In this document: positions 8,257 through 51,616 of the stretch, piece after piece
Layout: every line of letters starts with the position of its first letter
How positions within the stretch are numbered: the first letter of the stretch is position 1
NCBI GenBank assembly: GCA_965200315.1
Contig: OZ241362.1
Span: 2,592,001-2,656,000, forward strand
DNA: 64,000 nt
Origin: Candidatus Latescibacterota bacterium
Lineage (GTDB): Bacteria > Latescibacterota > UBA2968 > UBA8231
Direction of reading: 5' to 3'
Notes under the pieces: model-generated
Database searches by the model: none
What the model was told of the DNA's origin: nothing
Seen by the model: the letters and a program-made list of their open reading frames with translations, nothing else
Translations under genes and position numbers: made by a program

Positions 8257-8379
8257 CTGACGTCACGCATGGGCCTCCCACATCTCTTGTCATTCCCGCC
8301 TAAACGGCACCCGCTTGCGCGGCGTACCGGAGGGGGCGGTCCCCATAACGCGCCAAGACGCGACAGCACGTAACGTCCG
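8257..8379. mobile_element. Degenerate third copy of the TIR element family
   Basis: Left CTGACGTCACGCA, right GCACGTAACGTCCG; flanks TTCCTAC / TTCCCAA (5/7); internal GTCATTCCCGC half-REP. Confidence 0.55.
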
Positions 8380-8392
8380 TTCCCAATTGATT

Positions 8393-13760: not shown

Positions 13761-14795
13761 TTACGGCGAACTGGGCGACAAATTGTCGAAGACGATGAAC
13801 TGATGCTCAGCCAATCCGAGCTGCTCGGCTAGTGTATAACCAGCGCTCATCGGCAAGGAGGGGTTCAATTCCACGATCATCAGGTCTCGCTTGTCGGTGC
13901 CGATCTGGCCCAACTGGGCCAGTCCGTCCAAGCTGCTCAGGAGGGTATTGCCGCCAATGTAGAGGCTCTTACCCACTTGCCTGAGATTGTCCAATCCAGC
14001 CAAGTTTTGCAGGGCTTGGTTGCGGTTTATGCTCACAGCACCTCCGACCGCCGTCAGAGCGTTCAACCCTTCCAAGTGCTTGAGGACGGGATGCTCATCA
14101 ATGGCCAACCCACCCTTAATAGTCGCAATTCCGTTCAAACCCCGCAGGTCTCTGAGCGCGCCATTGAATATGAGCAGCAAATCCCCCTCTACCACCGAGA
14201 GACTGCCCAGCCCCTTTAGATCTCGCAGGGCCTTGTTATCCCTGATTTTGATGCTACCCCCCACGTGAGTCAGCCCGCTCAGACCATCTATGTTAATCAA
14301 CTCGGTCGTGGCATCGACGAAGAGATGGCCGTCGACGCGCCTGAGCGCTTTAAGCCCATTGAGGTCTCGCAGCGAAAAATTGCAGCTAATCTCGAAATTT
14401 CCTCCCACGCGTTCTAGCTGTTCTAGCCCTTGCAGTGCAATCAATCCATTGGAGAGAATATAGAAATTCCCTTCTACATAGCTGAGATTGTGCAGCCCTT
14501 TCAGGTCGGTCAGTGCCCCGTTATTCCGAATTGCGAAATCTCCCTCTACTCCGACCAGATTGTGCAGCGGCTCTATGCTGCTCAAGTACGCATTCTCCAA
14601 TAAAAAATCCCCCTGCACCACAAAAGCGTTCTTCTGCGCCCCCGCCCAAGCATCTAACTCCTCCTGAGACCCAATAACTATCGCCCCAGTCCCCCCAACG
14701 GCCAGCGGATCTTCAGACTCTCCCTGACAGCCGACCCAAAGGGCGACCCCCAAGACAGAGATTCCAAAACCCCATCTCCAACTAGCCATACTCAC
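13761..14795 (-). CDS. Receptor L-domain/LRR-like repeat lipoprotein
   Basis: Lipobox-like LWVGC; about 10 repeats of ~25 aa, L..L.GL..L..V.G.L.I..N; GTG start overlaps the upstream stop. Confidence 0.8.
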   Translation of the reverse strand: MSMASWRWGFGISVLGVALWVGCQGESEDPLAVGGTGAIVIGSQEELDAWAGAQKNAFVVQGDFLLENAYLSSIEPLHNLVGVEGDFAIRNNGALTDLKGLHNLSYVEGNFYILSNGLIALQGLEQLERVGGNFEISCNFSLRDLNGLKALRRVDGHLFVDATTELINIDGLSGLTHVGGSIKIRDNKALRDLKGLGSLSVVEGDLLLIFNGALRDLRGLNGIATIKGGLAIDEHPVLKHLEGLNALTAVGGAVSINRNQALQNLAGLDNLRQVGKSLYIGGNTLLSSLDGLAQLGQIGTDKRDLMIVELNPSLPMSAGYTLAEQLGLAEHQFIVFDNLSPSSP

Positions 14796-16459
14796 CCGCC
14801 CTTCACGTCTTCCTTCTCTTCCTGAATTTTCAACAAGTTATCCTCGAAAACCTCAACCGAGTACTTCTCGTGTAACCCGCGCATATACTCCACGTACGCG
14901 TTTTGCGAACGTGCAATTTTCACATAAGCCCGCGCCCGCCGCTGTGAAAAAATGTGGTAGGGCTTCTTGGGGGCCGGTTGCTTCTCCGCCACCTTGAACA
15001 CCGAATACCCCCCTCTCACCTTTACCGGCCCCCCCACATCCCCCACTTGCAGATCTTTGGCTACTTTGTAGAGGTCTTGGTATAACCCGACCGGACTCAA
15101 GACCAACCGGCCCTCGTGGTGCGCCCGCTCCTTGCGAATCGTATAGTCACTAGCCAATTGCACCGCGTCGGCACCTCCCACCAACTCCGCTTTCAGACTG
15201 AGGGCCTGCTCCTTAAAGGCCACTAGAATCTCGGTCATGACAATGTTTTCAAAGCCCTGAAACTTCTCGGGATTTTGATCGTAAAAGGCTCTCGCCTCTT
15301 CATCGGTGATCGGCGGCAGCCGCTCCTCAACCTCGCGCTTGCGCAACGCGCTCACCAGCATCTCGCTGCGCTTGTTGGCCACTGCCGAGAGGATCATCTG
15401 ATGTTTATCCAGTCCCTTGCCGCGGGCTTCTTCTAGAAACATCCGATTGGGGATGGCCGAATCCTGTATATAATCGACGATCCAGTTTAGCTCGTAATCG
15501 CGCGAATAACCCTCTTCTTTCTCCGGTATGCTCAGCACGAGATCGTCAATGGTGATCGCGCCGCCGTTGTAGCGGCACAAAACCTCTTCGCCCTCTCCGG
15601 GCAACGCCATCCGCTCTGCGGGCGACAGCGCTAGACGCATCAGCACGTGGTCTAGCTTGTCGTAGTGAATTTGCGGCGCGTACTTGCCAGCGAGCGAATC
15701 GCGCAGAACTTGGGCGCGCTGTAGGCGCTTTTGGGCGAACACCTCTTCCCGGACGAACCGAGCGACCTCCCGAAAGGTGACCGGAGCGTCGTCTAAAATT
15801 TTGACGATCACGTAGCGCTGTGGATCGCCCCAAGGCAGCGGCTCGGAAATCTCGCCGCCCTGCATGGAAAAGATACGCCGGAGCGGCGGGGCCACATCGT
15901 CAATTGTATAGTACTTTTCCACGTCCCCGCCTTGGTCCCGCGTCGCCTCGTAGAGCGAGTGCTTTCTGGCCAATTGACCGAAATCAGCACCAGCCTCAAG
16001 TTCGTCGAGCAGGTCGAGGGCCTCGTCTCGGGCCGCTACCAAAATACCCGCATAGCGCAGTGCGCGATCCCGGTGCGAATCCCGGTAGTACTGCATCAGT
16101 TCCTCTTTGACAATGGAAATTCGCCGATCAATCTCGCTACTTCTGTAGAGCCTGACGGTCTGGTCCGCGGCGAACTGCTCGAGCTTGTGCTTAAACTCCC
16201 GTTCGTCGCCAATGCCAGCTCGTTCCGCTTCGGCGAGCAATAGTTTTTTGTCGATCAGTCCATTGAGCAGAATCCGGTCGGCTGCGACGCCGGTCTTACC
16301 CATCTGGTAGGCTTTGGGGATATTCGCGGCATAGGCCCTGAACTCGCTGACGGCAATGGGTTGGTCTTTTATCTGGGCGAGCACTAGATCGTCTTGGGCT
16401 ATACAGGGAAGCCAAAGCCCTAGGATGCAAGCGACTGAGCGCACTATTCCATTCTTCAT
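14792..16459 (-). CDS. SurA/PrsA-like foldase with two parvulin (PpiC) domains
   Basis: GADFGQLARKHS..GGD and V.GPVKV.GGYSVFKV; start MKNGIV at 16459 gives a signal peptide. Confidence 0.82.
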   Translation of the reverse strand: MKNGIVRSVACILGLWLPCIAQDDLVLAQIKDQPIAVSEFRAYAANIPKAYQMGKTGVAADRILLNGLIDKKLLLAEAERAGIGDEREFKHKLEQFAADQTVRLYRSSEIDRRISIVKEELMQYYRDSHRDRALRYAGILVAARDEALDLLDELEAGADFGQLARKHSLYEATRDQGGDVEKYYTIDDVAPPLRRIFSMQGGEISEPLPWGDPQRYVIVKILDDAPVTFREVARFVREEVFAQKRLQRAQVLRDSLAGKYAPQIHYDKLDHVLMRLALSPAERMALPGEGEEVLCRYNGGAITIDDLVLSIPEKEEGYSRDYELNWIVDYIQDSAIPNRMFLEEARGKGLDKHQMILSAVANKRSEMLVSALRKREVEERLPPITDEEARAFYDQNPEKFQGFENIVMTEILVAFKEQALSLKAELVGGADAVQLASDYTIRKERAHHEGRLVLSPVGLYQDLYKVAKDLQVGDVGGPVKVRGGYSVFKVAEKQPAPKKPYHIFSQRRARAYVKIARSQNAYVEYMRGLHEKYSVEVFEDNLLKIQEEKEDVKGG

Positions 16460-16484
16460 AAATCTAAAACCATAGTTTGTAGGG

Positions 16485-18407
16485 TTAATAAACCAGCCGC
16501 ACGACCGCGACTTCGACATCCTTGGCCTTGTCCGAGTCCACTTCGAGACGCAAAAGATAGAGTCCGGGGGGTAGCAAGTTGCCCGCATCGTCCACGCCCT
16601 CCCAAGCAGCCGAGAACCGGCCACTAGCCGCGCTACTATGGGCCACCTCGCATCGCTTCACTCCCGCCAGATCGTAGAGATCAATCGCCACGGGCACAGC
16701 ACCGCTGAGATTTACCAGATCGTATTCAATCTGTAGCACATCGTTGACGCCATCGCCGTTGGGGGTAAAAAGCCGCGGCGAAAGCCACAATGCCTTGACC
16801 GCCGGATTGGCCACCGTACTCAAGCCGACGCTCAAGGTATTGCTCTCGGCCAGATCATCGGCGTTCCCCTCAGTGATGCGCTGGCGCACTTCATGGGGGA
16901 GTTGGCTATCGAAAACCCGGCCCGAAAACACCGTGCCCACCTGAAAGACCTCGGCCTGAAATTTGACCTCGACCAACTCGCCCGTGCGGTTGAGATCAAT
17001 CCGCGGTACTTGTACCACAAAGCTCTTCGCGTCCCTTTCCGCAATGGTAAAATCCTGTTCTTCGCCGCCGATGTACACTGCGTCAATGCTCGTGACCTCT
17101 ATGGGGGTGTTGATCTCAATGCTGTCGAAGCCGAGATCATTCTGCTCTAAGTTGGGCAGGATTTTGTAGATGAATTGGACGACCTCGCCCACCTCGACTT
17201 GGTGTGGCACGATCTCGGCTAGTACTTGGCTAGCTACCGGCGGCTGGGAGACGCTAAACTGCAAGTACTCCATGCGTCCGGCCGCAAGGGCCCGCTCCGA
17301 GAGGAAGTCCGCCTTGAACTGCAAGTAGCGCCGAGGCCGCGAACCCACCAATTCGGAATGCCCCCTATCGAAGTCGAGCGGTGGCGTCCAGAACTCCCAA
17401 TTTTCGTTGTCTGGGCTGATCCCGGCTTTCTCGCCGGCCTCCAGTCTTTTATAGCGGTCCAGAGTGAGCGGTTCGCCGCTGGTTGCAAAGCGGGAGCGCT
17501 CGTCGCCTCTGAACGTAAAGCGCCAGTAGAAATTGGGATCCGTGTCGTCGCCGCTGCGCATACTTAGATTGACCGTTGCGCCCTGATCTCGGCTGCCCGC
17601 CCAAGTCAGTTCGCCTAGGCTAGAAGCCATACCCAAATCAATGACATTGGATACATAGCTGGCCTGCGAGGCAAAGCCATCGCCGAAAATTTCAAATTCG
17701 GCGATCTCCCAATTGCCAACGGGTGCCTTAAAAAGAATTTCGGCAATGGGCCGGTCGGGCAGTTCCAACTCGAGAAAGGGCTCCAAATTATTGGCAACCG
17801 AGAACACGACATCGTAATCGAGAAAAGCCCCGCGCCAATGGTATTGCCCTTCTCGAGTTCCCTTTTTGCGCGAATCGCCGTCGTTGGTTCCTATCTCGAA
17901 TACCTCGATGAAGCGCTGGTGGGCAAAGCGCTCCGTGGTAGAAATTTTGATGCGCCGGATGGGAAACAGTCCGTTCAGCTCAAACCAGATGCCCTTCTTG
18001 CACGGCGAGCAGTCGGCCGACTGGCTGCGGCCACTTCCCAAATAAGCAGTGGTCAGATCCCCGTCCATCAAGAAGTCTAAGAGGGCTTCCGATTGCCAAC
18101 CGTAGGAATTGTTCGAGCGTATGCCCCCGCCCCGTTCCCGAATCAGCGGCGTCAGATTGACGCCAGGGTCTAAGCGCTGAGGCTCAATAGAACGAGTTGC
18201 GACCTCCAAGAGGTCTATCCTACCGAGCTGTTTTTCATCCACGTCAGCCCAAGACAACTGGATAAATTCAAATTCCCCATCCACTTCCGGCGGCGGCAAT
18301 TCCTCGCCGCCAATGCGATACACGGTGAGCGCCTCAACCGCAGCCAACCCATAGCAAAAGCTCCCTACTAGAGCAACCGCCAAAAGTCGCAGTAAATTCC
18401 CACTCAT
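16485..18407 (-). CDS. Secreted protein with C-terminal FlgD-Ig/CHU_C-type domain (paralog A)
   Basis: Signal peptide; discoidin-like segment (DGD.TT..., IAEFEIFG); C-terminal FTPNGDGVND...YDLAG...WEG.D..G..LPPGLY. Confidence 0.85.
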   Translation of the reverse strand: MSGNLLRLLAVALVGSFCYGLAAVEALTVYRIGGEELPPPEVDGEFEFIQLSWADVDEKQLGRIDLLEVATRSIEPQRLDPGVNLTPLIRERGGGIRSNNSYGWQSEALLDFLMDGDLTTAYLGSGRSQSADCSPCKKGIWFELNGLFPIRRIKISTTERFAHQRFIEVFEIGTNDGDSRKKGTREGQYHWRGAFLDYDVVFSVANNLEPFLELELPDRPIAEILFKAPVGNWEIAEFEIFGDGFASQASYVSNVIDLGMASSLGELTWAGSRDQGATVNLSMRSGDDTDPNFYWRFTFRGDERSRFATSGEPLTLDRYKRLEAGEKAGISPDNENWEFWTPPLDFDRGHSELVGSRPRRYLQFKADFLSERALAAGRMEYLQFSVSQPPVASQVLAEIVPHQVEVGEVVQFIYKILPNLEQNDLGFDSIEINTPIEVTSIDAVYIGGEEQDFTIAERDAKSFVVQVPRIDLNRTGELVEVKFQAEVFQVGTVFSGRVFDSQLPHEVRQRITEGNADDLAESNTLSVGLSTVANPAVKALWLSPRLFTPNGDGVNDVLQIEYDLVNLSGAVPVAIDLYDLAGVKRCEVAHSSAASGRFSAAWEGVDDAGNLLPPGLYLLRLEVDSDKAKDVEVAVVRLVY

Positions 18408-18451
18408 TATCTACTTCCTACACCGCCGGTAAATGATCCAGATAGTAAATA

Positions 18452-18486
18452 AAAGAAGGGGAGGAATAGAATTCCCCCCCTTCTTT
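18452..18486 (-). terminator. Intrinsic terminator downstream of the TWG-tailed protein
   Basis: AAAGAAGGGG(A)GGAAT-AGA-ATTCCCCCCCTTCTTT stem, with a U-tract on the minus strand. Confidence 0.75.
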
Positions 18487-18515
18487 ATGAGGCGCTTATA
18501 CGGCGCAAAAACCGC

Positions 18516-19436
18516 TTACTTGCCGAATGAAGCCTTGATCTGGCCCCAAGTGTTGTCTTCGACGGCTGTGGGCGCGATACCTTCAAAGGCGGACTCGTCA
18601 ACGCCCAGCATCACCCAGTCGGCCAAGAAATCGGCGTCGCCAAAGGACTCGACGTTGGGGCTGAGGGCCCAACGCGAATGGCAGTTACAATCGTCGGCCA
18701 ACTCAGCATCGGTATCAAAGACGTGCCCGGCAAGGCCGATGATCTCATCCTGTTCAAAGTCGTGCAGAACACTTCCTTGGGGGTCTTCCCAGTTGAAGTC
18801 GTCCCAATAGACGCTCCACCATTCGGCCCGTTGGCGCATCTCCTCAAAGGAATTGGGAGCCGTGCCACTAAACCAATAGGCATGGTCCGAGTACGGCGGC
18901 GTGTCGTACCAAGTAGCCTGGGTCATCCAAAACCAGTTCCACTCTCCCTCGCGGGCTTGGCCATTGTCGAACCAATAGTGGCTGATTTGCGCATGGCGAC
19001 CGCGCTGGCGTGCCTTCTCCTCGTCGGTCTGGCCTTCCAGATCCCAGAAGGAGCCGCCCGAGTGATCGGCATCTACAGTCGTTTCGACCGACTCGTTGCC
19101 CAACTGGTACTTGTCGTCGAAGCGCTCGTAGGCCCAGTAGAGGCGGTTGGTTTCCTCGTTCCAAGTGGGAATCCAGCGGAAGGAAATCGAGGACACGTCC
19201 AGATCGCCGGTGTAGATCCACGTCCGGCCCGTGCTCTGTACGACGCTCTGCTCGGTGATCCAAAATTCCTCGGGAATGATATCCCATTCGCTCAGATCGG
19301 CATCTAGGACCGGAAGGTGTGTCTCGGGCCATTGCCACACCGCGCCAATAAAATCGGGCGGATCGTGAGCCTGAACTTTGGTGCTCAAGCCGAGCAAAAG
19401 CACCGGAATAAATAAGGCTGACAAAACTTTTTTCAA
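18516..19436 (-). CDS. Secreted acidic Trp-rich protein, CBM9/DOMON-like, with C-terminal TAVEDNTWGQIK tail
   Basis: TTG start with AAGGAGG RBS; signal peptide ending AQA-like VQA-H; PVLDADLSEW and DADHSGG motifs. Confidence 0.78.
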   Translation of the reverse strand: MKKVLSALFIPVLLLGLSTKVQAHDPPDFIGAVWQWPETHLPVLDADLSEWDIIPEEFWITEQSVVQSTGRTWIYTGDLDVSSISFRWIPTWNEETNRLYWAYERFDDKYQLGNESVETTVDADHSGGSFWDLEGQTDEEKARQRGRHAQISHYWFDNGQAREGEWNWFWMTQATWYDTPPYSDHAYWFSGTAPNSFEEMRQRAEWWSVYWDDFNWEDPQGSVLHDFEQDEIIGLAGHVFDTDAELADDCNCHSRWALSPNVESFGDADFLADWVMLGVDESAFEGIAPTAVEDNTWGQIKASFGK

Positions 19437-19524
19437 GGCGAACCTCCTTCTTAGAGGTGTGAGGTTTTGGTTTTGCAGAACGATGCTCTAATTAATAAAA
19501 ACAGCCTATAAGGTCAAGCAAAAA

Positions 19525-22431
19525 TCACTTTAAGCCGGCGATAATCGACAGAAAACTCAAGCCCGAGGTCTCAATCTCTCGGCTCCGGTCGACAACCTCC
19601 AACGAGCGGCGGTCGAGGCGGATGCCCACCTGAGTGGTTAGCTCGTAGCCTAGATATTGGCTGATATTGGTCAATTGCAACGCCAAAACCGAGCCGCGAA
19701 AATCCCCAGTGAAAAGCCCCGCTGTCCGTTCGTTTTCCCTTTCTTCGAGGTCGAAGAAAGAGCGCTGCTCCAAGCCGAACTCAAACTCAGAAGTCTCAAA
19801 CACTGGAATGCTGCCGACAAAGAAGAAGATGCCGTCCCAAGAGCGCCGCGTGTCGAAGGCTCGGCTAAAGGGCACCTCGCGCAGGAATTCGCTCTTGAGT
19901 TTGGGCCTGAAACTCAGCGACCGCCAGTAAAAGACGCATTCTATCTTGTTGATCAGCCCGACAAAACCTGAGGTCCGTCGCCCGTTGCGCCCCTCAGGAC
20001 CTAGCGGGTCAAAGGCCACTGTAGGATCGCCAACCTCGTCGGAGGCATCGCGCAAAAATTCGCGCTGCCGCCAAGTCTCCCATTTGAAGCGATGCAGGGT
20101 CTGCCACAAACGCGGGCTAGAGTACTCCCAGTCGGCGTAAAAAGTGTTGATCCAAGTGTCCTCCGCAGCCAAGGGATCCAACACCGGCACATTGCTGCCG
20201 GCCGACTCGGCCGCTGCGCCGAATGTGCTCCTAGGGATGACCCATTGCACCAAGTGGTCGGCGATCTCGTCCTCGGCCTTCTTAACCATGTCGAAAATCC
20301 GCAGACGGCCCCACCGCGACCCGCTCTGCTCCAAGAGGAACATGCCATAGCTAGTCAGGTTGCGGCGGTTGCTCGCCAAGCGGGTTTGCCGCAACTGACC
20401 CACCCGTAGCTGGATACCCGGTGCCACCTCGAGCCCGCCGAAGACGTTGTAACCCCAGTGATCTTTCTTGTAGGGATAGTCCGGCTCTTGGTCGTTTTCA
20501 AAGCGCTCCACCCACCCATTGTTGTTGAGATCGATGCCGAAGAGAAATTCTGGGCGATCTGCGGCATAGCGCAAAAAAGGCTCGTCGTAGTCGGGGAAAA
20601 AATTCACCCGATCGACCGTGCTATTCTGGTTGAAATCCGATATGAAGTCGCGATTCTCGTCATAACCGGGGAAAACCGCCGGGTCGGCCACGCCGCGCAC
20701 CTCGATTTCGCTGCGTCGCTCGGTGGGGACAAAGCTGCCCTCGCCCACCCGCAGCCAGTCGGGTTGGCGGTCGTTGTCGTCGTTGTCATCTACAAACTCG
20801 TAGTGCAAATTGACGGCCTCGGGAGCGTAGTCCGACACCCCGTCTCGATTTACGGTCAGGACGCTGGTGCGGTACCCATCTTCCATACCAAATCCCTCGC
20901 CCCTAAAGCTCCAAGGCCCCTCTTGGAAGGCCAAATTGACCAACCAGCCTACTTCATGGCGATCCCCCTCGATACCATTGATCGCACGGTGGGAATCCCG
21001 TCCTATGCTGGGGTACTTTCGGTACTGGGTATTGAGGTTTATTTCTCCGTAAAAATCGAAGCCGTGAAAATCCCGCACCTCGGCCGTCAGACCGACGATC
21101 TGGTCGGCCGTAGGCAGCCCATAGTCGAAGACAACCTCGCGCTGGTTCAGTTGGTTCTTGATATTGCCGTCGGCCCGCGCCACGGGTAAAAATTGAGGCA
21201 CGTTAAATTCGTCCGTCTGCCTATTGGAACTGACCTCGACGCGATAGTCGTTGGCTAGCACGAGGCGGAAGCGCACGTCTCGAATGGCACTAATCGCGGC
21301 TTCGGCCTCAGATAGGGTGAGGTTTAGATGTTGCTGGAAGAGCACCCGCAAGGTTCCTTCTTCCCCGGCCGTTTCCCTAGGGGCTAAGGGGTATTGCAAA
21401 ATTATTTGGTCTGCGCCATCGGCCGTTAGAAATCCCCGATCTCGCCTCCCCCCCTCAATGGTCGGTCTAAAGCCGATACTGCTGCTGAGGATGACGGTAT
21501 CCCGCTCCACGTGAACTAGCTGATCCTGAACCGTCTCCTGACGGCTCAGGGTGGTGCGGATCTCGATCTCCTCGCTAACCAAGACGGCACCGCCCTCTCC
21601 GTCTTCCGGCGAGTCGTCCGAGAGCCGCACCAAGAGCAGGTCAACCCGCTGGGCCAGTTGCCCCGCCGTCAGGGCACCCTTGAACACATTCCCTTGGAAG
21701 CTCTCATTGCTGCCCGTGTTGTTGTGGCTGTTGACGAAGTTCACCCCCAACGTAAAAGAATCGCGCAAATCGGCTTCGATCCGGCCCGCTGTGAGGTTAG
21801 TAGCGTACTGGAAGCGCGCAGTGCCCCCCGAAAGGAGCGGGAACGAAATCCGCGAAAAAAGCCCAGTGGCGCGAAAGCGGTCGGCGGCAAAGTCGGCTAC
21901 TACCCCGTTGAACCCCGCCTTGCGGAAGGTCATCGGCGTTAGCGTAGTCCATATCTCGTCTCCGACCATAATCGAATAGCGGTACTGACCCTTGGAATCG
22001 CCGGATATGACCAAGCGGCTAAACCAGTTGTTGTACGAGGCCCCTTTTCTCACCGAGGAACTCTCGGCGATCAGCGGTTTTGTCTGGCGCCAGTCGTACA
22101 CCAGCCACCCCCGCGTAATGAGGCGACCGAAAGGATCGTAGAAGAGATCACCCTCCGATGTGGGGTTGATATAGCGCCTGTGGGCTTGGCGGGCGTAGTT
22201 GGTGTACTCCCATTGATTGCGGCCGAATTCGCCAAACAGGGGAGCCGGCATGTACCAGCGCTGCACGGTCGGATCCAGCGCCTCCATGTAAGTAGAAACG
22301 CCGGGCACGTGGTAGATGACGCGGTCTCCCACCCGATCTCCCAGCCGCCCCCCATAGTCGACTTGAGCAGCGGCTACTACCCACAGATTCAACCCGGCTA
22401 AGGCAGCCAATATGATGTAACGCGCCTTCAT
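19525..22431 (-). CDS. Large secreted hypothetical protein, probable outer-membrane beta-rich protein (paralog 1)
   Basis: 968 aa; signal peptide; Asp-rich motifs; alternating hydrophobic strands at the C-terminus; paralogous to 22434-25241. Confidence 0.8.
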   Translation of the reverse strand: MKARYIILAALAGLNLWVVAAAQVDYGGRLGDRVGDRVIYHVPGVSTYMEALDPTVQRWYMPAPLFGEFGRNQWEYTNYARQAHRRYINPTSEGDLFYDPFGRLITRGWLVYDWRQTKPLIAESSSVRKGASYNNWFSRLVISGDSKGQYRYSIMVGDEIWTTLTPMTFRKAGFNGVVADFAADRFRATGLFSRISFPLLSGGTARFQYATNLTAGRIEADLRDSFTLGVNFVNSHNNTGSNESFQGNVFKGALTAGQLAQRVDLLLVRLSDDSPEDGEGGAVLVSEEIEIRTTLSRQETVQDQLVHVERDTVILSSSIGFRPTIEGGRRDRGFLTADGADQIILQYPLAPRETAGEEGTLRVLFQQHLNLTLSEAEAAISAIRDVRFRLVLANDYRVEVSSNRQTDEFNVPQFLPVARADGNIKNQLNQREVVFDYGLPTADQIVGLTAEVRDFHGFDFYGEINLNTQYRKYPSIGRDSHRAINGIEGDRHEVGWLVNLAFQEGPWSFRGEGFGMEDGYRTSVLTVNRDGVSDYAPEAVNLHYEFVDDNDDNDRQPDWLRVGEGSFVPTERRSEIEVRGVADPAVFPGYDENRDFISDFNQNSTVDRVNFFPDYDEPFLRYAADRPEFLFGIDLNNNGWVERFENDQEPDYPYKKDHWGYNVFGGLEVAPGIQLRVGQLRQTRLASNRRNLTSYGMFLLEQSGSRWGRLRIFDMVKKAEDEIADHLVQWVIPRSTFGAAAESAGSNVPVLDPLAAEDTWINTFYADWEYSSPRLWQTLHRFKWETWRQREFLRDASDEVGDPTVAFDPLGPEGRNGRRTSGFVGLINKIECVFYWRSLSFRPKLKSEFLREVPFSRAFDTRRSWDGIFFFVGSIPVFETSEFEFGLEQRSFFDLEERENERTAGLFTGDFRGSVLALQLTNISQYLGYELTTQVGIRLDRRSLEVVDRSREIETSGLSFLSIIAGLK

Positions 22432-22433
22432 CC

Positions 22434-25241: not shown

Positions 25242-25280
25242 GGTAAAAATTCATCGCGAGGGGTTTCCCCTCGCCCGGTA

Positions 25281-27566: not shown

Positions 27567-27655
27567 ATCTTTTGACTCGGCTTCTCTGGGCTAAGGCAAC
27601 TAACTGTATGAAATACGAAAAGACACAGCAACCAAAATCCGGCAACGTATAGCAG

Positions 27656-29002
27656 CTAAGGTTGGTTGGCTTCAATTTGAATCTCGCCCGTAAACCCATT
27701 GGCGATCAAACGCTCCGCTAGGGCCTTAGCTGCACTACTAGGCAAGTTTCTATTGGCCCTAATGCCCAGCCGACCACCTACTTTTTCTAGCCTTGCCAAG
27801 CCCGCTACACTCTGCAATTTCTCGTTAAATTGGATGAATAAATGTCCTTCAATAGTCCTAAGTTCGCCGAGCCCAGCCGCGTTGACCAAGGCACTGTTGC
27901 CGAAGATGGATACGTTCCCCCGGATCCTGCTTAGGCGGTGCAGCCCTTCCAAACTGCGCAGCGCTCCATTATCGACGATCAGCAAATCCCCGCCGACGTA
28001 AGCCAAGCGTCGTAGGCCCGCCAAACTTTGCAGCGTGCTGTTGTCGATGAGCAAGAGAAGTCCTTCAATGCGGGCCAAGCGGGCCAAGCCTTCGAGACTG
28101 GGCAGGACGCTATTGGCCTGAATCAACAAATCACCCCCAATGCGCTGGCACCCGGCCAAGCCCGCCAAAGATACCAGCGCATCGTTTTTCTCGACTCTCA
28201 GGCTACCCCCGATCCAACTCAGCTTATCCAAGCCCGCCAAGCACTCCAAGCGGTTGTTGCCAATTACCAACACATTTCCAGCGACGCGCTCAAGCTGCTC
28301 TAGGCCCGCTAGGTCGACCAAGGCCCCATTGCTCTTGATTCGCAAAAAACCGCCCACATCCTCCAGCCGCCGCAGTCCCCCTAGCGCCTGCAACGACCGA
28401 TTGCGCTCGATGGCCAACCCGCCCATTAGGCGTTTGATCCCCCCTAGGCCTACCAGACTCTTTAGCGATCCATTGCCGACGACGAGGACCTGTCCCGCTA
28501 TGGTCTCCAGTCGCTCCAGCCCCTCAATATGGGCGAGGCGGCGATTGAATTGAACCCTGAGCGACCCACCCACGCGATTAATTCGACGCAACCCCTTCAG
28601 ATCAACCAAGGCATTGTTGCGCTCGATGATTAAGCTACCTCCTAATTCCTCCAGAGACCGCAATCCCGCCAAATCCGCGAGTTGGGGGTTGCGCCGAATT
28701 CGCAAACTGCCCCCAATCCTCTTTAGGTGGTGCAGGCCCGCCAAACTTTTCAACGAATCGCTATGCTCAATGCTCAGATCGCCTCCTACATACTCGAGCC
28801 GCTCCAACCCGTGCAGCATCTTCAGTTGGTCGCTCTGCACGAGCAAATGCCCTTCGACAGACCGGCCTGTCAAAGCGCGTAGGTCGGCTGCCGAATCGAC
28901 GACAAACCCTTCTGTTGATTTGTTCGGCTCAACCGCTTTTATCGCGCTAACACTCCAACACAATACCCCAATCAGCGGTACGAGCAGGGCTTTGCGATTC
29001 AT
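27656..29002 (-). CDS. Receptor L-domain/LRR-like repeat secreted protein
   Basis: About 15 regular 25-aa repeats L..L.GL..L..(I/V)GG.L.I..N; basic composition; start MNRKALL gives a signal peptide. Confidence 0.82.
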   Translation of the reverse strand: MNRKALLVPLIGVLCWSVSAIKAVEPNKSTEGFVVDSAADLRALTGRSVEGHLLVQSDQLKMLHGLERLEYVGGDLSIEHSDSLKSLAGLHHLKRIGGSLRIRRNPQLADLAGLRSLEELGGSLIIERNNALVDLKGLRRINRVGGSLRVQFNRRLAHIEGLERLETIAGQVLVVGNGSLKSLVGLGGIKRLMGGLAIERNRSLQALGGLRRLEDVGGFLRIKSNGALVDLAGLEQLERVAGNVLVIGNNRLECLAGLDKLSWIGGSLRVEKNDALVSLAGLAGCQRIGGDLLIQANSVLPSLEGLARLARIEGLLLLIDNSTLQSLAGLRRLAYVGGDLLIVDNGALRSLEGLHRLSRIRGNVSIFGNSALVNAAGLGELRTIEGHLFIQFNEKLQSVAGLARLEKVGGRLGIRANRNLPSSAAKALAERLIANGFTGEIQIEANQP

Positions 29003-29054
29003 TTTGTGTCCCCGGAATAAAGTTTCCCCGGTCAACGCGGTAGGGAACTCAGAG

Positions 29055-30674
29055 TCAGCGAGTAGGTTGGACTATGCGTACAATCTGATTGGCGTCAACA
29101 GCGTCCAACGTCTGGACTTGGCCGTCGGGCCAGCGAATCGCGATATCCGCCTTCGTCGCCCGACCAAGGCCAAAGTGGAGGCGGGGATCGTGGCCGGATA
29201 GATAGCTCCCCCCGGACTGGCGCTCCCGGACCTGACGCACACCGCCCGCGATAACAGTAACGCGGGTCCCTAGCGCATCCCGCTGACCAGTACCGACCAA
29301 GAGGAGTTCGACCCAGTGCTGGCGATTGCCCCCGTCGTTGCGCAACAGACGAGGCCGCCCGGCCACGGTAGTCGCCAGTAGCTCCAGATCGCCGTCGTTG
29401 TCCCAATCGGCCACAGCCGCGCCGCGAACCGCGCTCTCAACGACAAAGTCGGCACCCAACTGGTCGGAGACTTCTTCAAAGTGGGCACCGTCTTGGTTGC
29501 GCAGCATAAGGTCGGGCTGGGCGTAGCGGAGGTCGGCGTCGAGTTGCTCGATATTATCCACCACGTGCCCGTTGCCGACAAATAAATCGAGGTCGCCGTC
29601 ATTGTCGTAGTCCATAAATTTGGTCCCGAACCCCAAGGGCAGATACGTGAGGGCCCCCAAGCCGAAGTGGGCGGTAAAATCGGCAAAGCGCCCCCGGCCA
29701 TCATTCCAGTAGAGGGTGTTGGTCTCGCGCGAGTAATTGGTTACGAAAAGATCGGCGTACCCATCGTTGTCGAAATCGCCGAAGTCAACGCCCATACCGG
29801 CTTCGGCGTGCCCATCTTCGTTGTATTGCACCCCGGCTTGTAGGCCGATCTCGACAAAGCGCGTCTCTTGGTTTTCGTAGAGAAAATTCGGCGTACCATC
29901 GTTGGCCACGTAAATATCCGTATCGCCGTCCAAGTCGCTGTCTGCAAAGGCCACGCCCAGCCCTCGTCCCACCGCACGGATGCCCACCCTCTTGGTCACA
30001 TCGACAAAGCGCCTGCCATCGTTGCGATAGAGCACATCCCCGATGGGTGCGTAGGTGCTTGGCTCGCAGTAAAAGCGAATCGTCCCCCGCTTGCACTCGA
30101 TATTGCCCGGCAAGCTGAAATGCACATAATTGGCCACAAAGAGGTCCAGGTCCCCATCGTTGTCGAAATCCAAAAATCCGCTGCTGGTGCCCCAGCGCCC
30201 GTCGCCCACGCCGGCTATTTGGGTAACGTCTGCAAAGCGCCCGCCGCCGTTATTGCTCAACAGCACATTGGGACCGAAGTTGGTTGCGTAGAGATCTTGA
30301 TCCCCATCGTTGTCGAAATCGCCCGCCGCACATCCCATGCCGTAGCCCCGATCGCCAGTTCCAGACGCGACAGAGAGATCGGCGAAAGTCCCATCGCCAG
30401 CGTTGCGATAAAGGCGATTGATGGGCGAAGTCGGGGGCAGGGCCCCCGAAAGATGGGCACCGTTAATCAGGTATATGTCCTGCCAGCCGTCCCCATCGGC
30501 GTCAAAGAATGCTGCGCCTGCGCCAAAGGTCTCGACATAGTAGTATTCGCCTTGAGCACCGTTGTAGTGTTGGAAGTCAATTCCGGCTTCTTGGGCGACT
30601 TCCCGGTAGCGCACTTGCGCCTGTGCAGCGACGACACAAGCGCACAAGATGGACAATAGTGAGTATCTTCTCAT
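29055..30674 (-). CDS. CRTAC1-family protein (FG-GAP + ASPIC/UnbV)
   Basis: DFDNDGD.DL repeats; GGSYLSGHDPRLHFGLG; RWPDG. Confidence 0.93.
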   Translation of the reverse strand: MRRYSLLSILCACVVAAQAQVRYREVAQEAGIDFQHYNGAQGEYYYVETFGAGAAFFDADGDGWQDIYLINGAHLSGALPPTSPINRLYRNAGDGTFADLSVASGTGDRGYGMGCAAGDFDNDGDQDLYATNFGPNVLLSNNGGGRFADVTQIAGVGDGRWGTSSGFLDFDNDGDLDLFVANYVHFSLPGNIECKRGTIRFYCEPSTYAPIGDVLYRNDGRRFVDVTKRVGIRAVGRGLGVAFADSDLDGDTDIYVANDGTPNFLYENQETRFVEIGLQAGVQYNEDGHAEAGMGVDFGDFDNDGYADLFVTNYSRETNTLYWNDGRGRFADFTAHFGLGALTYLPLGFGTKFMDYDNDGDLDLFVGNGHVVDNIEQLDADLRYAQPDLMLRNQDGAHFEEVSDQLGADFVVESAVRGAAVADWDNDGDLELLATTVAGRPRLLRNDGGNRQHWVELLLVGTGQRDALGTRVTVIAGGVRQVRERQSGGSYLSGHDPRLHFGLGRATKADIAIRWPDGQVQTLDAVDANQIVRIVQPTR

Positions 30675-30762
30675 ATACTAGACAGACGGCTCGGTTACTT
30701 TGACCGGCAATCTAACCACAAACCGGAACACTCGTGCAAATGCACCTAAAAACGGGCAGTCA

Positions 30763-32292
30763 ATGACCCGCTTCTACCTACCTCGCAAAAGGGTTGCGTC
30801 TTGGCTTGGGGCCGTCCTCTGTCTGCTCACTTGCGCCTGTGGACCCAAGGAGCGAGACCCCTTGGTCCGCGCCGGGATGTACGCCTTTGCTCAGGAGCGC
30901 TACAGCGAAGCCATCGTCGCCTTGCACAAGGCGTTGGCCTCACGCGCCGACGATTACGAAGTCCACCACTATCTCGCTCGCTCTTATTTAGCATTGAGTA
31001 AATTCCCCCAAGCCCTGCGCGCGATCGAACACGCGATTGAGCTAGCCCCCCAAAAAGACCAGACGCGCGCCGAGTTGTACGAAGTCCTCGGCATCATTCA
31101 CACGGCCCGCTACACCTCTAGGGCGTATAGCCAAAACCAGCAGCGCGATGTCGAAGCAGCGCGGGCCGCCTTTGAGCAAGCGACCGCGCTCGATCCTCAC
31201 CGGGCAACGGCTTATTACAACTTGGGCCTATTGCACGGCTATCGCAAAGAAGTAGATCAGGCCCAAGCAGCGTACACTGCGGCCTTGGCGGCGGACTCCA
31301 CCTTGGCACCAGCCTACAAAAAATTGGGCAAAATCCAGCGGGAAAAGGGGTTCCCGCCCGAGGCGGCCGGGGCCTTTAAAAAAGCGGTGCGCTTCGACCC
31401 GCAAGACGCCGAAGCGCACTTTCTCTTGGGGCTAGCCCAGCGCGATATGGGCGATAATGAGGCGGCTTTGCAGGCACTACTCAAGGCGACCGAACTCAAC
31501 CCCGACTCGCCCAAGCTCCGCCTCAACCTCGGCAATGTCTATCTCCGCTTGGGCCGCCGCGAAGAGGGCCGGCGGGAAATGGCGCGTTCCGAAAGCCTGC
31601 GCCAGCAGCATCGGGGTCTGCACTCCGAAATCTCCCCACCGACGCACAAATCGCTCCCCATCGGCTCGGCGCGGGATCACTACAATATGGGATTGAAGCA
31701 CCAGATGGCCGGCGAAACCGACCAGGCTTTGTTAGAGTTTCGTCGCGCGGTCGAAATCAAACCCGATCACAAAGACGCCCTCATCGGCCTCGGCCTCCTC
31801 CTCGCCGAGCAAGGCCAACAAAAACAGGCGGCCCGGTATTTTCAGCGGGCTATCGAGCTGGATCGAGAAAATCCCATTCTGTACGTGCATCTGGGCCATG
31901 CTCACCATCAGTCGGGCTTGCTCGCAAGGGCGGCCCAAACCTTTGCCAAGGCGGCCCAACTCGACACCTCCCTCATCGAGCCTCCCTATATGCTCGGTTT
32001 GATCGCCGCCCAGCAACGCCAATTCAAAGTAGCCGCGCGATTTTTTGCCCAAGCCACAGCCCTCGCTCCCCAATACGCCAAAGCCCATTTCAACCTAGGG
32101 GTAGCCCATGCCCAGCTCGGAGACTTTGCTGCGGCTCGTACCGCCTACCAGCGCTTTGTCGAGTTGGAGCCTGAAGATGGGCGCGGATACCTCTACTTGG
32201 GCGATGCGTACGAAGCGCTCGGTTTGCTCGCAGAGAGTCAAAAGCATCGAGCACGTGGTCAGCAGCTTTTGGAACGAGACGAGCGCGATTAG
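30763..32292 (+). CDS. Tetratricopeptide repeat protein, probable lipoprotein
   Basis: Many TPR units (AYYNLG, AHFLLG, AHFNLGVA); lipobox-like LTCAC. Confidence 0.88.
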   Translation: MTRFYLPRKRVASWLGAVLCLLTCACGPKERDPLVRAGMYAFAQERYSEAIVALHKALASRADDYEVHHYLARSYLALSKFPQALRAIEHAIELAPQKDQTRAELYEVLGIIHTARYTSRAYSQNQQRDVEAARAAFEQATALDPHRATAYYNLGLLHGYRKEVDQAQAAYTAALAADSTLAPAYKKLGKIQREKGFPPEAAGAFKKAVRFDPQDAEAHFLLGLAQRDMGDNEAALQALLKATELNPDSPKLRLNLGNVYLRLGRREEGRREMARSESLRQQHRGLHSEISPPTHKSLPIGSARDHYNMGLKHQMAGETDQALLEFRRAVEIKPDHKDALIGLGLLLAEQGQQKQAARYFQRAIELDRENPILYVHLGHAHHQSGLLARAAQTFAKAAQLDTSLIEPPYMLGLIAAQQRQFKVAARFFAQATALAPQYAKAHFNLGVAHAQLGDFAAARTAYQRFVELEPEDGRGYLYLGDAYEALGLLAESQKHRARGQQLLERDERD

Positions 32293-32351
32293 GGGTTAGT
32301 GATTAGTCCCTGCACCACAAGGCCGAGGGGGGAGGAGCCGATCACTGACCA

Positions 32352-34940
32352 CTAATAAGCTACGGCTAGCGTGTGGATCAATTCCTCCTGACCCAACTCA
32401 GCCCCCGACGTATCGGCATCTAGCTGTAGGTGCATTATGTACAAACCCGGCGGCACGAGCGTTCCCTCTTCGTTCCTTCCGTCCCACCCCATCTCGTAAA
32501 TCCCCGAGGCAAAATCCCGCTGCTCGGCTAGCTGGCGCACCAAGCGTCCCGGCAAATCGTAGATAGTCGCCGCAACCTGCTGACTTCCCTCCACCAACAC
32601 CACGGAAAAGCGCAACGCCACCTCGTCGTTGACCCCATCCCCATTGGGCGTCAATACCGCCGGCTCGACCACCAAATCCGCAAAAATTGAGCGCCGCTGC
32701 GGCTGCCCCACCACCAATAACCGATTGCTGCCGACCGTCTCCACAGCTTCCCCGGGATCGACGCGCTGCCAGATTCCCTCCCCATCTTCTCCGCGACGTA
32801 GTTGCACTTTTAGCGGTCCGCCGCGAGAAAACAGACGCCCCGCAAAGTCTATCCGCAACACCGCTACTTCGCTCCCCGGTTCCAGCGGGTCAAAGGACAA
32901 ATGCACCCGGTCCGCTGCCGAAGCCAGCACCTTTGCTGCCAAGGGCGAAAAATCCCCCCCGTCCGCGCTCCCCAACAACCCGTCATACGTCAGTTCCATG
33001 CCCGCCGGTGCTTCCAACAACAACTCGTTGAATCCCCCATCTCCGGCGCCAAACTCGGGTCGCACATACACCGAAAAAGGAGCCGCAGCCCCCAGCCGAT
33101 CCACCTCGCTGGGCACTATCTCTCCCAAGAGGCGTCGCGCCACCGGCTCGGCAAAGTGCAGCCGCAGCCCCGACAAACTCGCCGCCACATCCGGTGCGGC
33201 CGAGCGCAACGTCGCCCGCACCTTGAGAAACTCCCGCGGCGACGGCGAAGTGATGGGGCTACCTTCCGGCTGGTCGTAGGGCACACTCCACGGCTCCCAG
33301 TCTGCACCGGCGACTTCCTCGGACACGGTCTCGCCGCGAAAAATGCTCAATAGTTTGTTGTAGGCCGCTTCGGAGATTTCGGTCCCATCCTTTTTGAAGT
33401 AATGCACGATCTCGCCCAAGGTGTCGCCGGTGCGGGTCTGAAGTTGGACCTCGGTCCCGGGCGGCGTGTGTGCATCCCACTCGAGGGAGACCAAGTTGCG
33501 GCTGCCGCCCAACCGGATCAGGTCCGACTCGAGCTGCACCTCTGGCAAAAACCCCGCGCCAAAAAGTTGTATCTCGCTCAACCGAGTAGCACTGCGGTTG
33601 GGACGGCGCACATGTTCTACTTCAAACACCAAGCGAAAAAAGCGCCCCTTTATCGGGTCGAAGTCATTGCCATCGACGTTGAGGGCCCCGGCAACGCCCC
33701 GCTTTACCTGATCGCGCCGCACGGCCGTGGCCCACTTGAGGCCCCCGTCCACCTCCCGCGAACCGTCCGAAAATTCCAACCGATGGTTGCCAAGGGCGTA
33801 CTCGGTGAAACTCATCCTGTGGCTGTGGACCCAGAAGAACGAACCCAAGTCAATGAACAACTCGTCCTCTAAGCGATTCTCGATGTTGAATAGAGACAGC
33901 CCCTCTACACTGGTCACATCGCCGTCGATCATCAATTGGGGATTGATGCTGCCGGGCACCGTAGTAGAAATGGAGCCATTGCGCCGCAAGGCCCCACTAG
34001 CCAAGTCGTCGCCTTGGGTCCAGACTTCGAGTTCGGCCAACCGGGGTCGCTCGCGCCGAAAGTAGCGTATCGTCCCCCGCCGCTGCGGATCGAGAGCCTC
34101 GTACACTTCCTGTTTGACCACGATTTCCCGCCCGTCGGTTTGGCGCTTGCTATATTCGATGATGCCTCGGTCTTCAGAGGGTAGCTGGTCGTACTCCTCT
34201 GGGGATACCTCGCGGCCGCGGCCAAAATCGCTGGCCTGCACGACCACCTGGACAAAGCGCGCTACAGCCCGGCGCTGGTCGAGCCCTACGGGGTCGAGCT
34301 CGACTTCAAACGTTCGCTGGCTTTTGTTGGGCTTTAGCGTCTGGAGCACCGGAAAAAACTCGAGGCTCGACCCGCCGATTGCCTGCACTGGCTTCTGCCC
34401 GTCCGACACCAGAACGTCAAACAAAAGAAAGGGATCGCCCATTCCCTCCTCGACGAACTTTAGCGCGATTTTGTTGATGAAGACAACGCGGCCCAAATCC
34501 ACGGTAAACCACCACTGAGACGACAGATCTACATCCTCATCAACCGGATCAGGCTCCCAGTACGTAGTCAAGCTGCCATCTAGAGCGGCAGCGACCCCGG
34601 CGCGGTTGGAGCCACCCTGAATGGCGTCGAGGAGGACGATGTCTTCAGGGTCTTTCTTGGAGAGGTAATCTGGAGGGTTATAGCGCAAAAAATCGACAAT
34701 ATCCAGCGCGGCATTGGTGTTTTTGTGGACGCGGTTGGGCCGCACTTCTCCGAGTGGAGAAACTTGGATAGTACCGGGCGCAAATTCCCAGTGCTCCCAG
34801 TGCTCAGGCCCGACGACGACTTGGTTCGCACTGCGGTCGATACGATGCCCTGCTTGAGCCAGCAAATCCTCGGCCCCATGCGACCACAGCACGGCACTGA
34901 CCACCACAAAGCGCGTCAAAAGTTTCGTGCGGATATTCAT
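32352..34940 (-). CDS. Secreted protein with C-terminal FlgD-Ig/CHU_C-type domain (paralog C)
   Basis: Two discoidin-like segments (ALDG...TYW, W.TVDLG, LAELEVW, LSEIQLFG); WEPWS.PY; ITSPSPREFL; LTPNGDGVND; WDGRN..G..VPPGLY. Confidence 0.85.
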   Translation of the reverse strand: MNIRTKLLTRFVVVSAVLWSHGAEDLLAQAGHRIDRSANQVVVGPEHWEHWEFAPGTIQVSPLGEVRPNRVHKNTNAALDIVDFLRYNPPDYLSKKDPEDIVLLDAIQGGSNRAGVAAALDGSLTTYWEPDPVDEDVDLSSQWWFTVDLGRVVFINKIALKFVEEGMGDPFLLFDVLVSDGQKPVQAIGGSSLEFFPVLQTLKPNKSQRTFEVELDPVGLDQRRAVARFVQVVVQASDFGRGREVSPEEYDQLPSEDRGIIEYSKRQTDGREIVVKQEVYEALDPQRRGTIRYFRRERPRLAELEVWTQGDDLASGALRRNGSISTTVPGSINPQLMIDGDVTSVEGLSLFNIENRLEDELFIDLGSFFWVHSHRMSFTEYALGNHRLEFSDGSREVDGGLKWATAVRRDQVKRGVAGALNVDGNDFDPIKGRFFRLVFEVEHVRRPNRSATRLSEIQLFGAGFLPEVQLESDLIRLGGSRNLVSLEWDAHTPPGTEVQLQTRTGDTLGEIVHYFKKDGTEISEAAYNKLLSIFRGETVSEEVAGADWEPWSVPYDQPEGSPITSPSPREFLKVRATLRSAAPDVAASLSGLRLHFAEPVARRLLGEIVPSEVDRLGAAAPFSVYVRPEFGAGDGGFNELLLEAPAGMELTYDGLLGSADGGDFSPLAAKVLASAADRVHLSFDPLEPGSEVAVLRIDFAGRLFSRGGPLKVQLRRGEDGEGIWQRVDPGEAVETVGSNRLLVVGQPQRRSIFADLVVEPAVLTPNGDGVNDEVALRFSVVLVEGSQQVAATIYDLPGRLVRQLAEQRDFASGIYEMGWDGRNEEGTLVPPGLYIMHLQLDADTSGAELGQEELIHTLAVAY

Positions 34941-51449: not shown

Positions 51450-51616
51450 GAATCCGTCCTTTGTTTGTAGTAATGACAAGGCCCCGAAGATACGAATTCC
51501 CAAGAGGCCAGCATAGGGCGCGGCCTATTTTGGCGGCTATTCGGGGTGCAACCCGCTCAATGTCTCGATATGTTTCTCATACATACCGATGCGCAACGTC
51601 AGCGAGATACAAACAG

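Follow-up and report, generated by a model that had tools for sequence, protein, structure and literature searches.

The 64,000-nucleotide stretch of DNA analyzed here (positions 2,592,001 to 2,656,000 of contig OZ241362.1, assembly GCA_965200315.1, from a Candidatus Latescibacterota bacterium; hereafter "the window") carries a self-contained envelope cassette that is found in several copies per genome in Latescibacterota-type genomes. The fixed core of the cassette is made up of three secreted, tailed proteins that are rich in discoidin and immunoglobulin (Ig) domains and are adhesin-like (FlgD_A, FlgD_B and FlgD_C), and of two paralogous predicted barrels of ~950 aa (Big935 and Big968). The best explanation, to which we give a probability of roughly 40%, is that the tailed proteins are adhesins resembling type B substrates of a type IX secretion system (T9SS), anchored at the cell surface through a cognate pair of barrels in the role that PorP/SprF proteins play elsewhere. 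The cassette appears to be undescribed so far. Its logic resembles that of type B cargo/shuttle pairs, while the barrel family, and a short tag at the C terminus of an accessory protein (the TWG protein), appear to be new.

What is conserved in this region? A profile of the large protein was scanned against one genome per species, yielding at least 660 relatives. The best 80 loci were kept, and all of their open reading frames (ORFs) were translated and matched to the window proteins. Full 10-kb flanks were available for 58 of the 80 loci, and 48 of these 58 are divergent, meaning that their Big968 is <85% identical to that of the window. The order FlgD_B, Big935, (PpiC), Big968, where PpiC is a parvulin-type foldase gene, recurs in 48/48 of the divergent loci; in 35 of them FlgD_B, Big935 and Big968 are strictly contiguous, with no intervening PpiC. 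Big935 is present in all 48, as is FlgD_B, which lies directly upstream of it. FlgD_C is found in 46/48, FlgD_A in 45/48, PpiC in 38/48 (between the two barrel genes in 13 of these) and the TWG gene in 31/48. In L016, L025 and L067, among other loci, an ORF with tetratricopeptide (TPR) repeats separates Big968 from TWG; with a coverage filter, a TPR gene is counted in 9/48 loci. Chance clustering is rejected, since the gene order recurs in every divergent full-flank locus from other genomes. A first-pass annotation of the window had proposed that these genes form one module to which the foldase belongs, and had called for a check of gene order and copy number; the loci bear the proposal out. 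Neither of the two outcomes that it named as telling against the proposal came about: the homologs are syntenic, and no characterized family was found that explains the cluster. The same annotation counted CRTAC1-like, receptor L-domain and GT-C genes as members, a claim that is rejected here. A CRTAC1-like gene lies within 10 kb in 12/48 divergent loci, and the L-domain and GT-C genes in 0/48 each, so all three fall outside the conserved unit; homologs of the L-domain protein at 27656–29035 were found only in close orthologous loci. The L-domain and GT-C genes are lineage-specific accessories, and CRTAC1 is an accessory rather than a core gene. Judged from the counts for each component, the conserved unit is therefore narrower than the gene list first drawn up. 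It consists of FlgD_B, Big935, Big968, FlgD_A and FlgD_C, usually with PpiC and TWG and often with a TPR gene.

The cassette is found repeatedly within single genomes. Among the best 80 of the 660 relatives, at least 4 separate loci lie on each of OZ247580.1 and OZ220478.1, two multi-contig metagenome-assembled genomes (MAGs) have at least 4 each, and three further chromosomes have at least 3 each. The history of these copies can be read from two trees, both built with FastTree only, with long branches flagged and no rows dropped after building. In the tree of 53 large proteins, one branch (support 82) parts the 935-type from the 968-type proteins. The two labels thus need 1 change, a count as low as which was reached in 0 of 500 label shuffles, and the cassettes group in the same way in both subtrees. 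In the tree of 66 tailed proteins, the labels A, B and C need the minimum of 2 changes, with support of 100 for B and 99 for C. At least one each of A, B and C is found in 14/21 sampled loci and in the window, and exactly three tailed genes are found in 30/48 divergent loci. The mirrored subtrees and the minimal-change tree of the tailed proteins indicate that the five-gene set is ancient and was duplicated as a block, which is expected of proteins that work together in a fixed composition. By the same trees, the tailed proteins appear as three ancient orthogroups, normally with one of each per cassette, instead of the variable binding subunits that had first been envisaged. Some cassettes have three large barrel genes instead of two: in L019, L024 and L071 the additional 935-type copy is upstream of FlgD_B, and in L050 it lies further downstream. 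By the submitters' labels, 60 of the 80 loci belong to Latescibacterota/Latescibacteria, 18 to Gemmatimonadota/Gemmatimonadetes, 1 to Planctomycetota and 1 to Rhizobiaceae. Loci L004, L005, L022, L038 and L077, labeled Gemmatimonadetes or Gemmatimonadota, are ~94% identical to L002, L003 and L006, labeled Latescibacterota. Because the labels conflict among such similar loci, they are not an estimate of the range of the cassette.

Big935 and Big968 are 40% identical to each other (395/996 columns) and belong to a large family, with 836 homologs at E ≤ 1e-3 in a 90%-clustered sequence set and 731 representatives in a 50%-clustered set. For these proteins, as for TWG, no source name other than "hypothetical protein" was shown. 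Big968 has no Pfam match at E ≤ 10; Big935 has one chance-level match at the same threshold (LnmK_N_HDF, E 0.18, 11.9 bits), and neither has an NCBIfam match at E ≤ 0.1. Among PDB sequences, a close-family profile finds 0 matches at E ≤ 10, and a broad profile finds only a chance-level match to a restriction-enzyme subunit (E 0.025). An AlphaFold2 model of Big968, made from a 27-row alignment, has a predicted local distance difference test score (pLDDT) of 66.5 and a predicted template modeling score (pTM) of 0.62. The modeled parts, residues 139–516 and 658–967, are built of long beta-hairpins, with 27 strands of ≥8 residues; the number of strands and the closure of the barrel are inferred from the secondary-structure string rather than from coordinates. 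A conserved, aromatic-rich N-terminal segment (residues 12–137) and an acidic, Asn-rich insert at ~520–660 (Asp plus Glu fraction 0.21–0.23) are unmodeled. In Foldseek searches with this model, all matches at E ≤ 0.001 listed to rank 25 are outer-membrane barrels, among them SlpA, MtrB, LptD, SprA, ushers, TamA and a TonB-dependent receptor. The query-normalized TM-scores (TMq) are only 0.13–0.21, so no family is assigned from these matches. With this support from the model, Big935 and Big968 are predicted to be giant outer-membrane beta-barrels, and they appear to form a new giant-barrel family without a Pfam model. A SusC-like identity is rejected: Pfam scans find no Plug or TonB-dependent receptor domain in either protein, although the same library detects Plug genes elsewhere in the window. 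The first-pass description of the large proteins as barrel-like, yet neither SusCD nor PorP, agrees with the barrels found by Foldseek and with the lack of Plug and PorP/SprF Pfam matches in the scanned ORFs of the cluster.

The tailed proteins are paralogs with 27–30% identity (E 1e-52, 1e-32); FlgD_A and FlgD_B are 27% identical over 682 columns (E 1e-52). The tails of FlgD_A and FlgD_B score above the Pfam gathering cutoff for CHU_C (27 bits), and tailed homologs carry precomputed PF13585 and PF13860 annotations. The tails score about as high against FlgD_ig as against CHU_C. The few homologs that have names are called "T9SS type B sorting domain-containing protein" or [quoted passage not shown], in keeping with the initial view that the tails are CHU_C-like. 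FlgD_B, the sole tailed protein modeled, is predicted by AlphaFold2 to be a string of beta domains (pLDDT 83.8, pTM 0.70), a multi-domain architecture whose Foldseek neighbors are galactose oxidase, the biofilm scaffold RbmA, the MG domains of complement/alpha-2-macroglobulin, and PorU. These neighbors point to an adhesin-like binder rather than an enzyme. A hidden Markov model (HMM) trained on 202 distinct tails matches no gene of the window besides FlgD_A, FlgD_B and FlgD_C (FlgD_C at E 8.7e-34, FlgD_A at E 5.5e-37); in the loci it matches 212 ORFs, all of the same family. A complex prediction for residues 36–935 of Big935 with the FlgD_B tail (residues 667–761) gave a score of 0.00 against a mark of 0.32, which speaks neither for nor against binding.

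The TWG protein adds a candidate carbohydrate-binding fold and a conserved tag at its extreme C terminus. Its neighbor clusters in a language-model search carry CBM9_1, with scores of 0.97, 0.95 and 0.92, on 13%, 37% and 94–100% of their members. By sequence comparison, CBM9_1 (PF06452) is found weakly in 2/24 TWG homologs (best E 6e-4); it has no match in the window TWG protein at E ≤ 10, and the best match of a TWG profile among PDB sequences has an E-value of 1.1. In an alignment of 24 homologs, Ala23-His24 is invariant (24/24) and follows an AxA-type signal-peptidase site identified by eye, from which the mature protein is predicted to start with His. A second histidine, H125, lies within the sequence DADHSGG and is conserved in ≥90% of homologs. 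An N-terminal His and a second conserved His recall the signature of copper histidine-brace proteins, as in lytic polysaccharide monooxygenases (LPMOs) or CopC-like proteins, here in a putative CBM9-like fold. Among TWG-homolog ORFs, 54 match the motif [ST]W[GA]x[IVL]K within their last 30 residues, and every one of these carries the longer C-terminal tag T-A/S-V-E-x-x-S/T-W-G-x-I/V/L-K. The shorter motif occurs in 56/4233 locus ORFs and is C-terminal in 56/56. The two carriers that are not TWG homologs are copies of an unrelated secreted protein of 460/494 aa (L044:8482-9864 and L035:8477-9961), encoded between PpiC and Big968 in both loci. A six-frame motif scan of the window finds two tag matches only, in the TWG protein and in a secreted fasciclin-domain protein encoded outside the cluster. 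Over all its carriers the tag reads T-A/S-V-E/Q-x-x-S/T-W-G-x-I/V/L-K. The presence of a portable tag on three unrelated protein families suggests a sorting or docking signal, which would be a new candidate of this kind. The tagged fasciclin gene comes after the first of two SusC-like genes in the window.

How might these proteins work together? The closest parallel is the pairing of T9SS type B substrates with PorP/SprF proteins, as for SprB/SprF and Fjoh_3952/Fjoh_3951 of Flavobacterium johnsoniae. As the relevant passages of PMC12618676 describe it, type B substrates in F. johnsoniae are adhesins, and like the cassette these systems have secreted adhesin-like proteins with a CHU_C-type end, an outer-membrane barrel gene directly downstream of the substrate gene, several loci per genome, and often a TPR-containing partner nearby (PorE-like in F. 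johnsoniae). The T9SS translocon is present in at least one genome that bears the cassette. In locus L063, part of a Latescibacterota chromosome, an ORF at 17427–22724 (+), cut off by the locus end (1766 aa read), scores 608.8 bits against TIGR04189 (Sov/SprA; cutoff 200) and also matches SprA_N (E 7.5e-34). It lies ~4.6 kb past the cassette, beside LptF/LptG genes, and with it the module is not independent of known secretion biology. In the mechanism that we propose, the tailed proteins would cross the inner membrane by Sec and exit the periplasm via the T9SS translocon. The barrel pair encoded downstream would then take them over and hold them on the cell surface, which is the PorP/SprF-like part. 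The two barrels would act as an obligate pair, the parvulin chaperone may escort barrels or cargo, and tag-bearing accessory proteins would dock to the complex, which may bind glycans or other surfaces. The module may serve in ligand capture, adhesion or display.

Several observations weigh against a type-B-like assembly or set it apart from the known pairs. With three tailed proteins and two barrels, a simple pairing of one cargo with one shuttle does not fit. PorP/SprF proteins are about one third the length of these barrels; here two ~950-aa paralogs would replace a small shuttle. The gene directly downstream of FlgD_B is Big935, which is not of the PorP/SprF family; neither large protein has a PorP/SprF match in Pfam (E ≤ 10) or NCBIfam (E ≤ 0.1), and Pfam finds none in 16 ORFs of the cluster and its neighbors or in 71 flank ORFs of other loci (20 + 51 cluster representatives of 96). 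The barrel model itself is moderate in quality (pLDDT 66.5), and the N-terminal 110 residues and the acidic insert lie outside it. As for the tails, FlgD_C falls just under the CHU_C cutoff, and all three score below the 35-bit cutoff of TIGR04131 (FlgD_A 15.8, FlgD_B 21.6 and FlgD_C 19.3 bits). Unlike a general secretion tag, the tail occurs on no other family in ~1.6 Mb of flanks plus the window, a sample biased to cassette neighborhoods, and the cargo consists of three fixed orthogroups. A T9SS component, SprA, was seen in one related genome only, and in the 64 kb examined of the window's own genome, no T9SS family is matched by the 40 ORFs scanned against Pfam. Finally, the host phylum is not Bacteroidota, to which the T9SS is exclusive according to the passages concerned of PMC12618676.

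A different reading is that the cassette captures and imports nutrients. The barrels would act as channels for uptake, glycans would be bound at the surface by the tailed proteins with their discoidin domains and by the CBM9-like TWG protein, and the whole would be a functional SusCD analog, diversified by duplication for different substrates. There is evidence in its favor. Like SusC/SusD loci, the cassette is multi-copy, with several divergent copies per genome, and it combines an outer-membrane barrel with surface proteins of carbohydrate-binding type. The discoidin domain of FlgD_C, the galactose-oxidase-like N-terminal domain of the FlgD_B model and the CBM9-like leads for TWG are all consistent with glycan binding; sulfatase or FGE-sulfatase genes adjoin some cassettes, and the conserved N-terminal ~110 residues and the acidic insert of the barrels could gate a pore. 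The barrels, however, differ from SusC in having no Plug or TonB-dependent receptor match in Pfam scans, and no SusD-like gene, carbohydrate-active enzymes (CAZymes), regulators or inner-membrane sugar transporter recur in the flanks, where the genes outside the cassette are of mixed kinds (restriction-modification, sulfatase, FGE-sulfatase, PhyH, dehydrogenases, LptFG). Moreover, the set of binding proteins is not variable but consists of three fixed orthogroups. We regard uptake as unlikely. Alternatively, the barrel pair could itself be the translocon for the tailed, and perhaps TWG-tagged, proteins, with the parvulin delivering them and the T9SS uninvolved. Such self-contained export would account for a tail that is restricted to one family in the sampled DNA, as a private signal would be, and for the second private C-terminal tag, found on TWG and on the unrelated 460-aa protein encoded inside cassettes L044 and L035. 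In size, the model is comparable to barrels that serve transport (LptD, ushers and SprA, for example), and the chaperone gene is inside the cassette, between the barrels in 13/48 loci. SprA/Sov likewise combines a giant barrel with a peptidyl-prolyl isomerase (PPIase), PDB entry 8gl8 being a "SprA-PorV-PPI-RemZ-SkpA-SprE complex". SprA also differs from the barrels: it is ~2,300 aa long (the model length of TIGR04189) as against their ~950 aa, Foldseek matches it only weakly (E 1.3e-4, TMq 0.15), and a true SprA is encoded separately in a cassette-bearing genome. That translocon and the CHU_C-like tail both argue for T9SS involvement and against a private exporter, as do the lack of an energy source or motor component in the cassette and the occurrence of a TWG-type tag on the fasciclin protein, ~30 kb from the cassette. 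Self-contained export is quite improbable.

The cassette could also serve envelope architecture, with the barrels as abundant structural outer-membrane proteins of the SlpA type and the tailed proteins as a surface coat. SlpA chains are the best Foldseek matches to Big968 (7zgx, 8agd and 8ae1; E 3.5e-7 to 4.4e-6), and 10/38 distant family members (25–30% identity) match Pfam SlpA_C below threshold, over a shared stretch of the profile (best E 2e-7 with 30.2 bits; cutoff 35). The SlpA-like barrels of Deinococcus-Thermus (PF21620 SlpA_C; 7zgx, 8ae1) are also very large: the pertinent passages of PMC9388160 describe SlpA as tripartite, with an SLH domain at the N terminus, a coiled coil in the middle and a 30-stranded barrel, compared with 27 long strands in the Big968 model. 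SlpA_C, however, is absent from the Big proteins of the window (Pfam, E ≤ 10), no SLH domain was matched in any Pfam scan, and the Big968 model has no coiled coil and no long helix, the longest being the signal peptide (residues 4–21). The TMq of the SlpA matches is only 0.19, and the profile searches of PDB sequences returned no SlpA chain. The cassette, unlike SlpA, encodes a heterologous pair inside a set of adhesin genes, and at least 4 divergent copies per genome would be unusual for a structural tether. An architectural role is very unlikely.

In the window, the cassette forms part of a minus-strand run of 11 co-oriented genes that extends from 30674 down to 10341, as established from the ORF listing and from Pfam/NCBIfam scans (Table 1). 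The first-pass annotation had the genes, their coordinates and their shared orientation right. The span that it gave, 13761–34940, leaves out two genes that it named as part of the run, namely those for the GT-C enzyme and the last CRTAC1 protein.

Table 1. Coordinates of genes and sequence elements in and around the cassette (window positions)
Feature	Position	Strand	Evidence and remarks
FG-GAP/UnbV_ASPIC (CRTAC1-like) protein, third paralog in the window	3313–5427	+	
Fused major facilitator superfamily (MFS)/spermidine-synthase protein, beside the cluster	5702–8224	+	NF037959 152 bits, cutoff 40
DUF6785+DUF6784 polytopic membrane protein, beside the cluster	8315–10336	+	
FG-GAP/UnbV_ASPIC protein, second; last gene of the run	10341–11978	-	FG-GAP_3 E 3.8e-57, UnbV_ASPIC E 6.6e-22
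Polytopic GT-C-like putative glycosyltransferase, ~10 transmembrane-like windows	12025–13731	-	NF047440 E 7.3e-55, 186.6 bits (below its cutoff of 200)
Receptor L-domain protein with lipobox-like LWVGC	13761–14795	-	Recep_L_domain E 2.8e-12 (Pfam); N terminus by eye
PpiC parvulin, two rotamase domains	14792–16459 (ORF to 16624)	-	Rotamase_2 E 2.7e-19, Rotamase E 4.9e-15
FlgD_A, 640 aa	16485–18407	-	CHU_C 29.0 bits (Pfam)
Promoter-like site before FlgD_A	18433..18406	-	Consensus scan only
Terminator-like hairpin just after TWG, 16 pairs	18486..18452	-	Consensus scan only
TWG protein, 306 aa, secreted, CBM9-like	18516–19436	-	No Pfam match
Big968, 968 aa	19525–22431	-	No Pfam family; 2 bases downstream of Big935
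Big935, 935 aa	22434–25241	-	No Pfam family up to E 0.01
GC-rich hairpin between FlgD_B and Big935, 8 pairs (7 G-C)	25256–25274	-	Consensus scan only
FlgD_B, 761 aa	25281–27566	-	CHU_C 32.5 bits, FlgD_ig 30.8 bits (Pfam)
Receptor L-domain/LRR-like secreted protein	27656–29035	-	Recep_L_domain E 1.1e-24 (Pfam)
FG-GAP/UnbV_ASPIC (CRTAC1-like) protein, first gene of the run	29055–30674	-	FG-GAP_3 E 4.7e-46, UnbV_ASPIC E 8.3e-23 (Pfam)
TPR-repeat protein, 530 aa, upstream of the run	30700–32292	+	Many TPR Pfam matches
FlgD_C, 862 aa, upstream of the run	32352–34940	-	F5_F8_type_C E 5.3e-8, FlgD_ig 29.3 bits, CHU_C 26.5 bits
SusC-like TonB-dependent receptor gene, first	51461–53782	+	CarboxypepD_reg and Plug
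Fasciclin-domain secreted protein with TWG-type tag, outside the cluster	54000–54542	+	Fasciclin E 1e-39
SusC-like TonB-dependent receptor gene, second	61960–63999	+	CarboxypepD_reg and Plug

Junctions within the run range from -4 to 108 bases. That between PpiC and FlgD_A is 25 bases if PpiC starts at the internal ATG at 16459, which, judged from the length of its orthologues, is probably the true start. Every non-membrane product of the cluster has a signal-like N-terminal segment, as judged by eye. The PpiC product has PpiC-type rotamase domains in two stretches behind a signal sequence, and is on this basis a predicted periplasmic chaperone/PPIase of the parvulin type, SurA/PpiD-like; the NCBIfam peptidylprolyl isomerase (equivalog) models all score far below their cutoffs, and no specific orthology is claimed. 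The terminator-like hairpin after TWG and the promoter-like site before FlgD_A suggest that the run may be two transcripts. The hairpin between FlgD_B and Big935 may act in attenuation or in RNA stability, and the two hairpins could set expression ratios or divide transcripts. Terminator-like sites are not enriched in the region (27 found versus 21.7 ± 4.2 in shuffles), and no Rfam family was found in the window.

The conserved cassette is bracketed in the window by two CRTAC1-like paralogs (10341–11978 and 29055–30674), each with an L-domain protein near it, and a third CRTAC1-like paralog is encoded beyond them. The genes for the fused MFS/spermidine synthase and for the DUF6785 protein lie beside the cluster. 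Homologs of the former are found ≤10 kb from the cassette in 7/48 divergent loci and of the latter in 11/48, sometimes in two or three copies.

What does the cassette mean for the biology of Latescibacterota? The phylum is widespread; all 80 kept loci come from MAGs and none comes from a cultured isolate. No literature was found that joins the T9SS and Latescibacterota, or that deals with the genes of this cassette; in the passages concerned, a Latescibacteria genomics paper mentions porins, TonB-dependent uptake and a type VI system only (PMC4454575). The cassette thus offers type-B-like T9SS tails, partnered with non-PorP/SprF barrels, in a phylum for which the T9SS is not mentioned in the literature searched. 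With at least 660 relatives of its large protein among species-representative genomes, and 731 representatives at 50% identity, it is one of the most repeated envelope features of Latescibacterota. A bolder proposal, which is rather unlikely, is that the cassette encodes a new kind of outer-membrane machine. In it, two ~30-strand barrels of a new family, obligately joined as a heteromer, would receive and permanently house the three tailed subunits and would recruit accessories via a second, C-terminal sorting tag, T-A-V-E-x-x-S/T-W-G-x-I/V-K. If this is true, the cassette, amplified into at least 4 specificities per genome, would have a targeting code of its own and would be for Latescibacterota what polysaccharide utilization loci (PULs) or gliding adhesin systems are for other bacteria.

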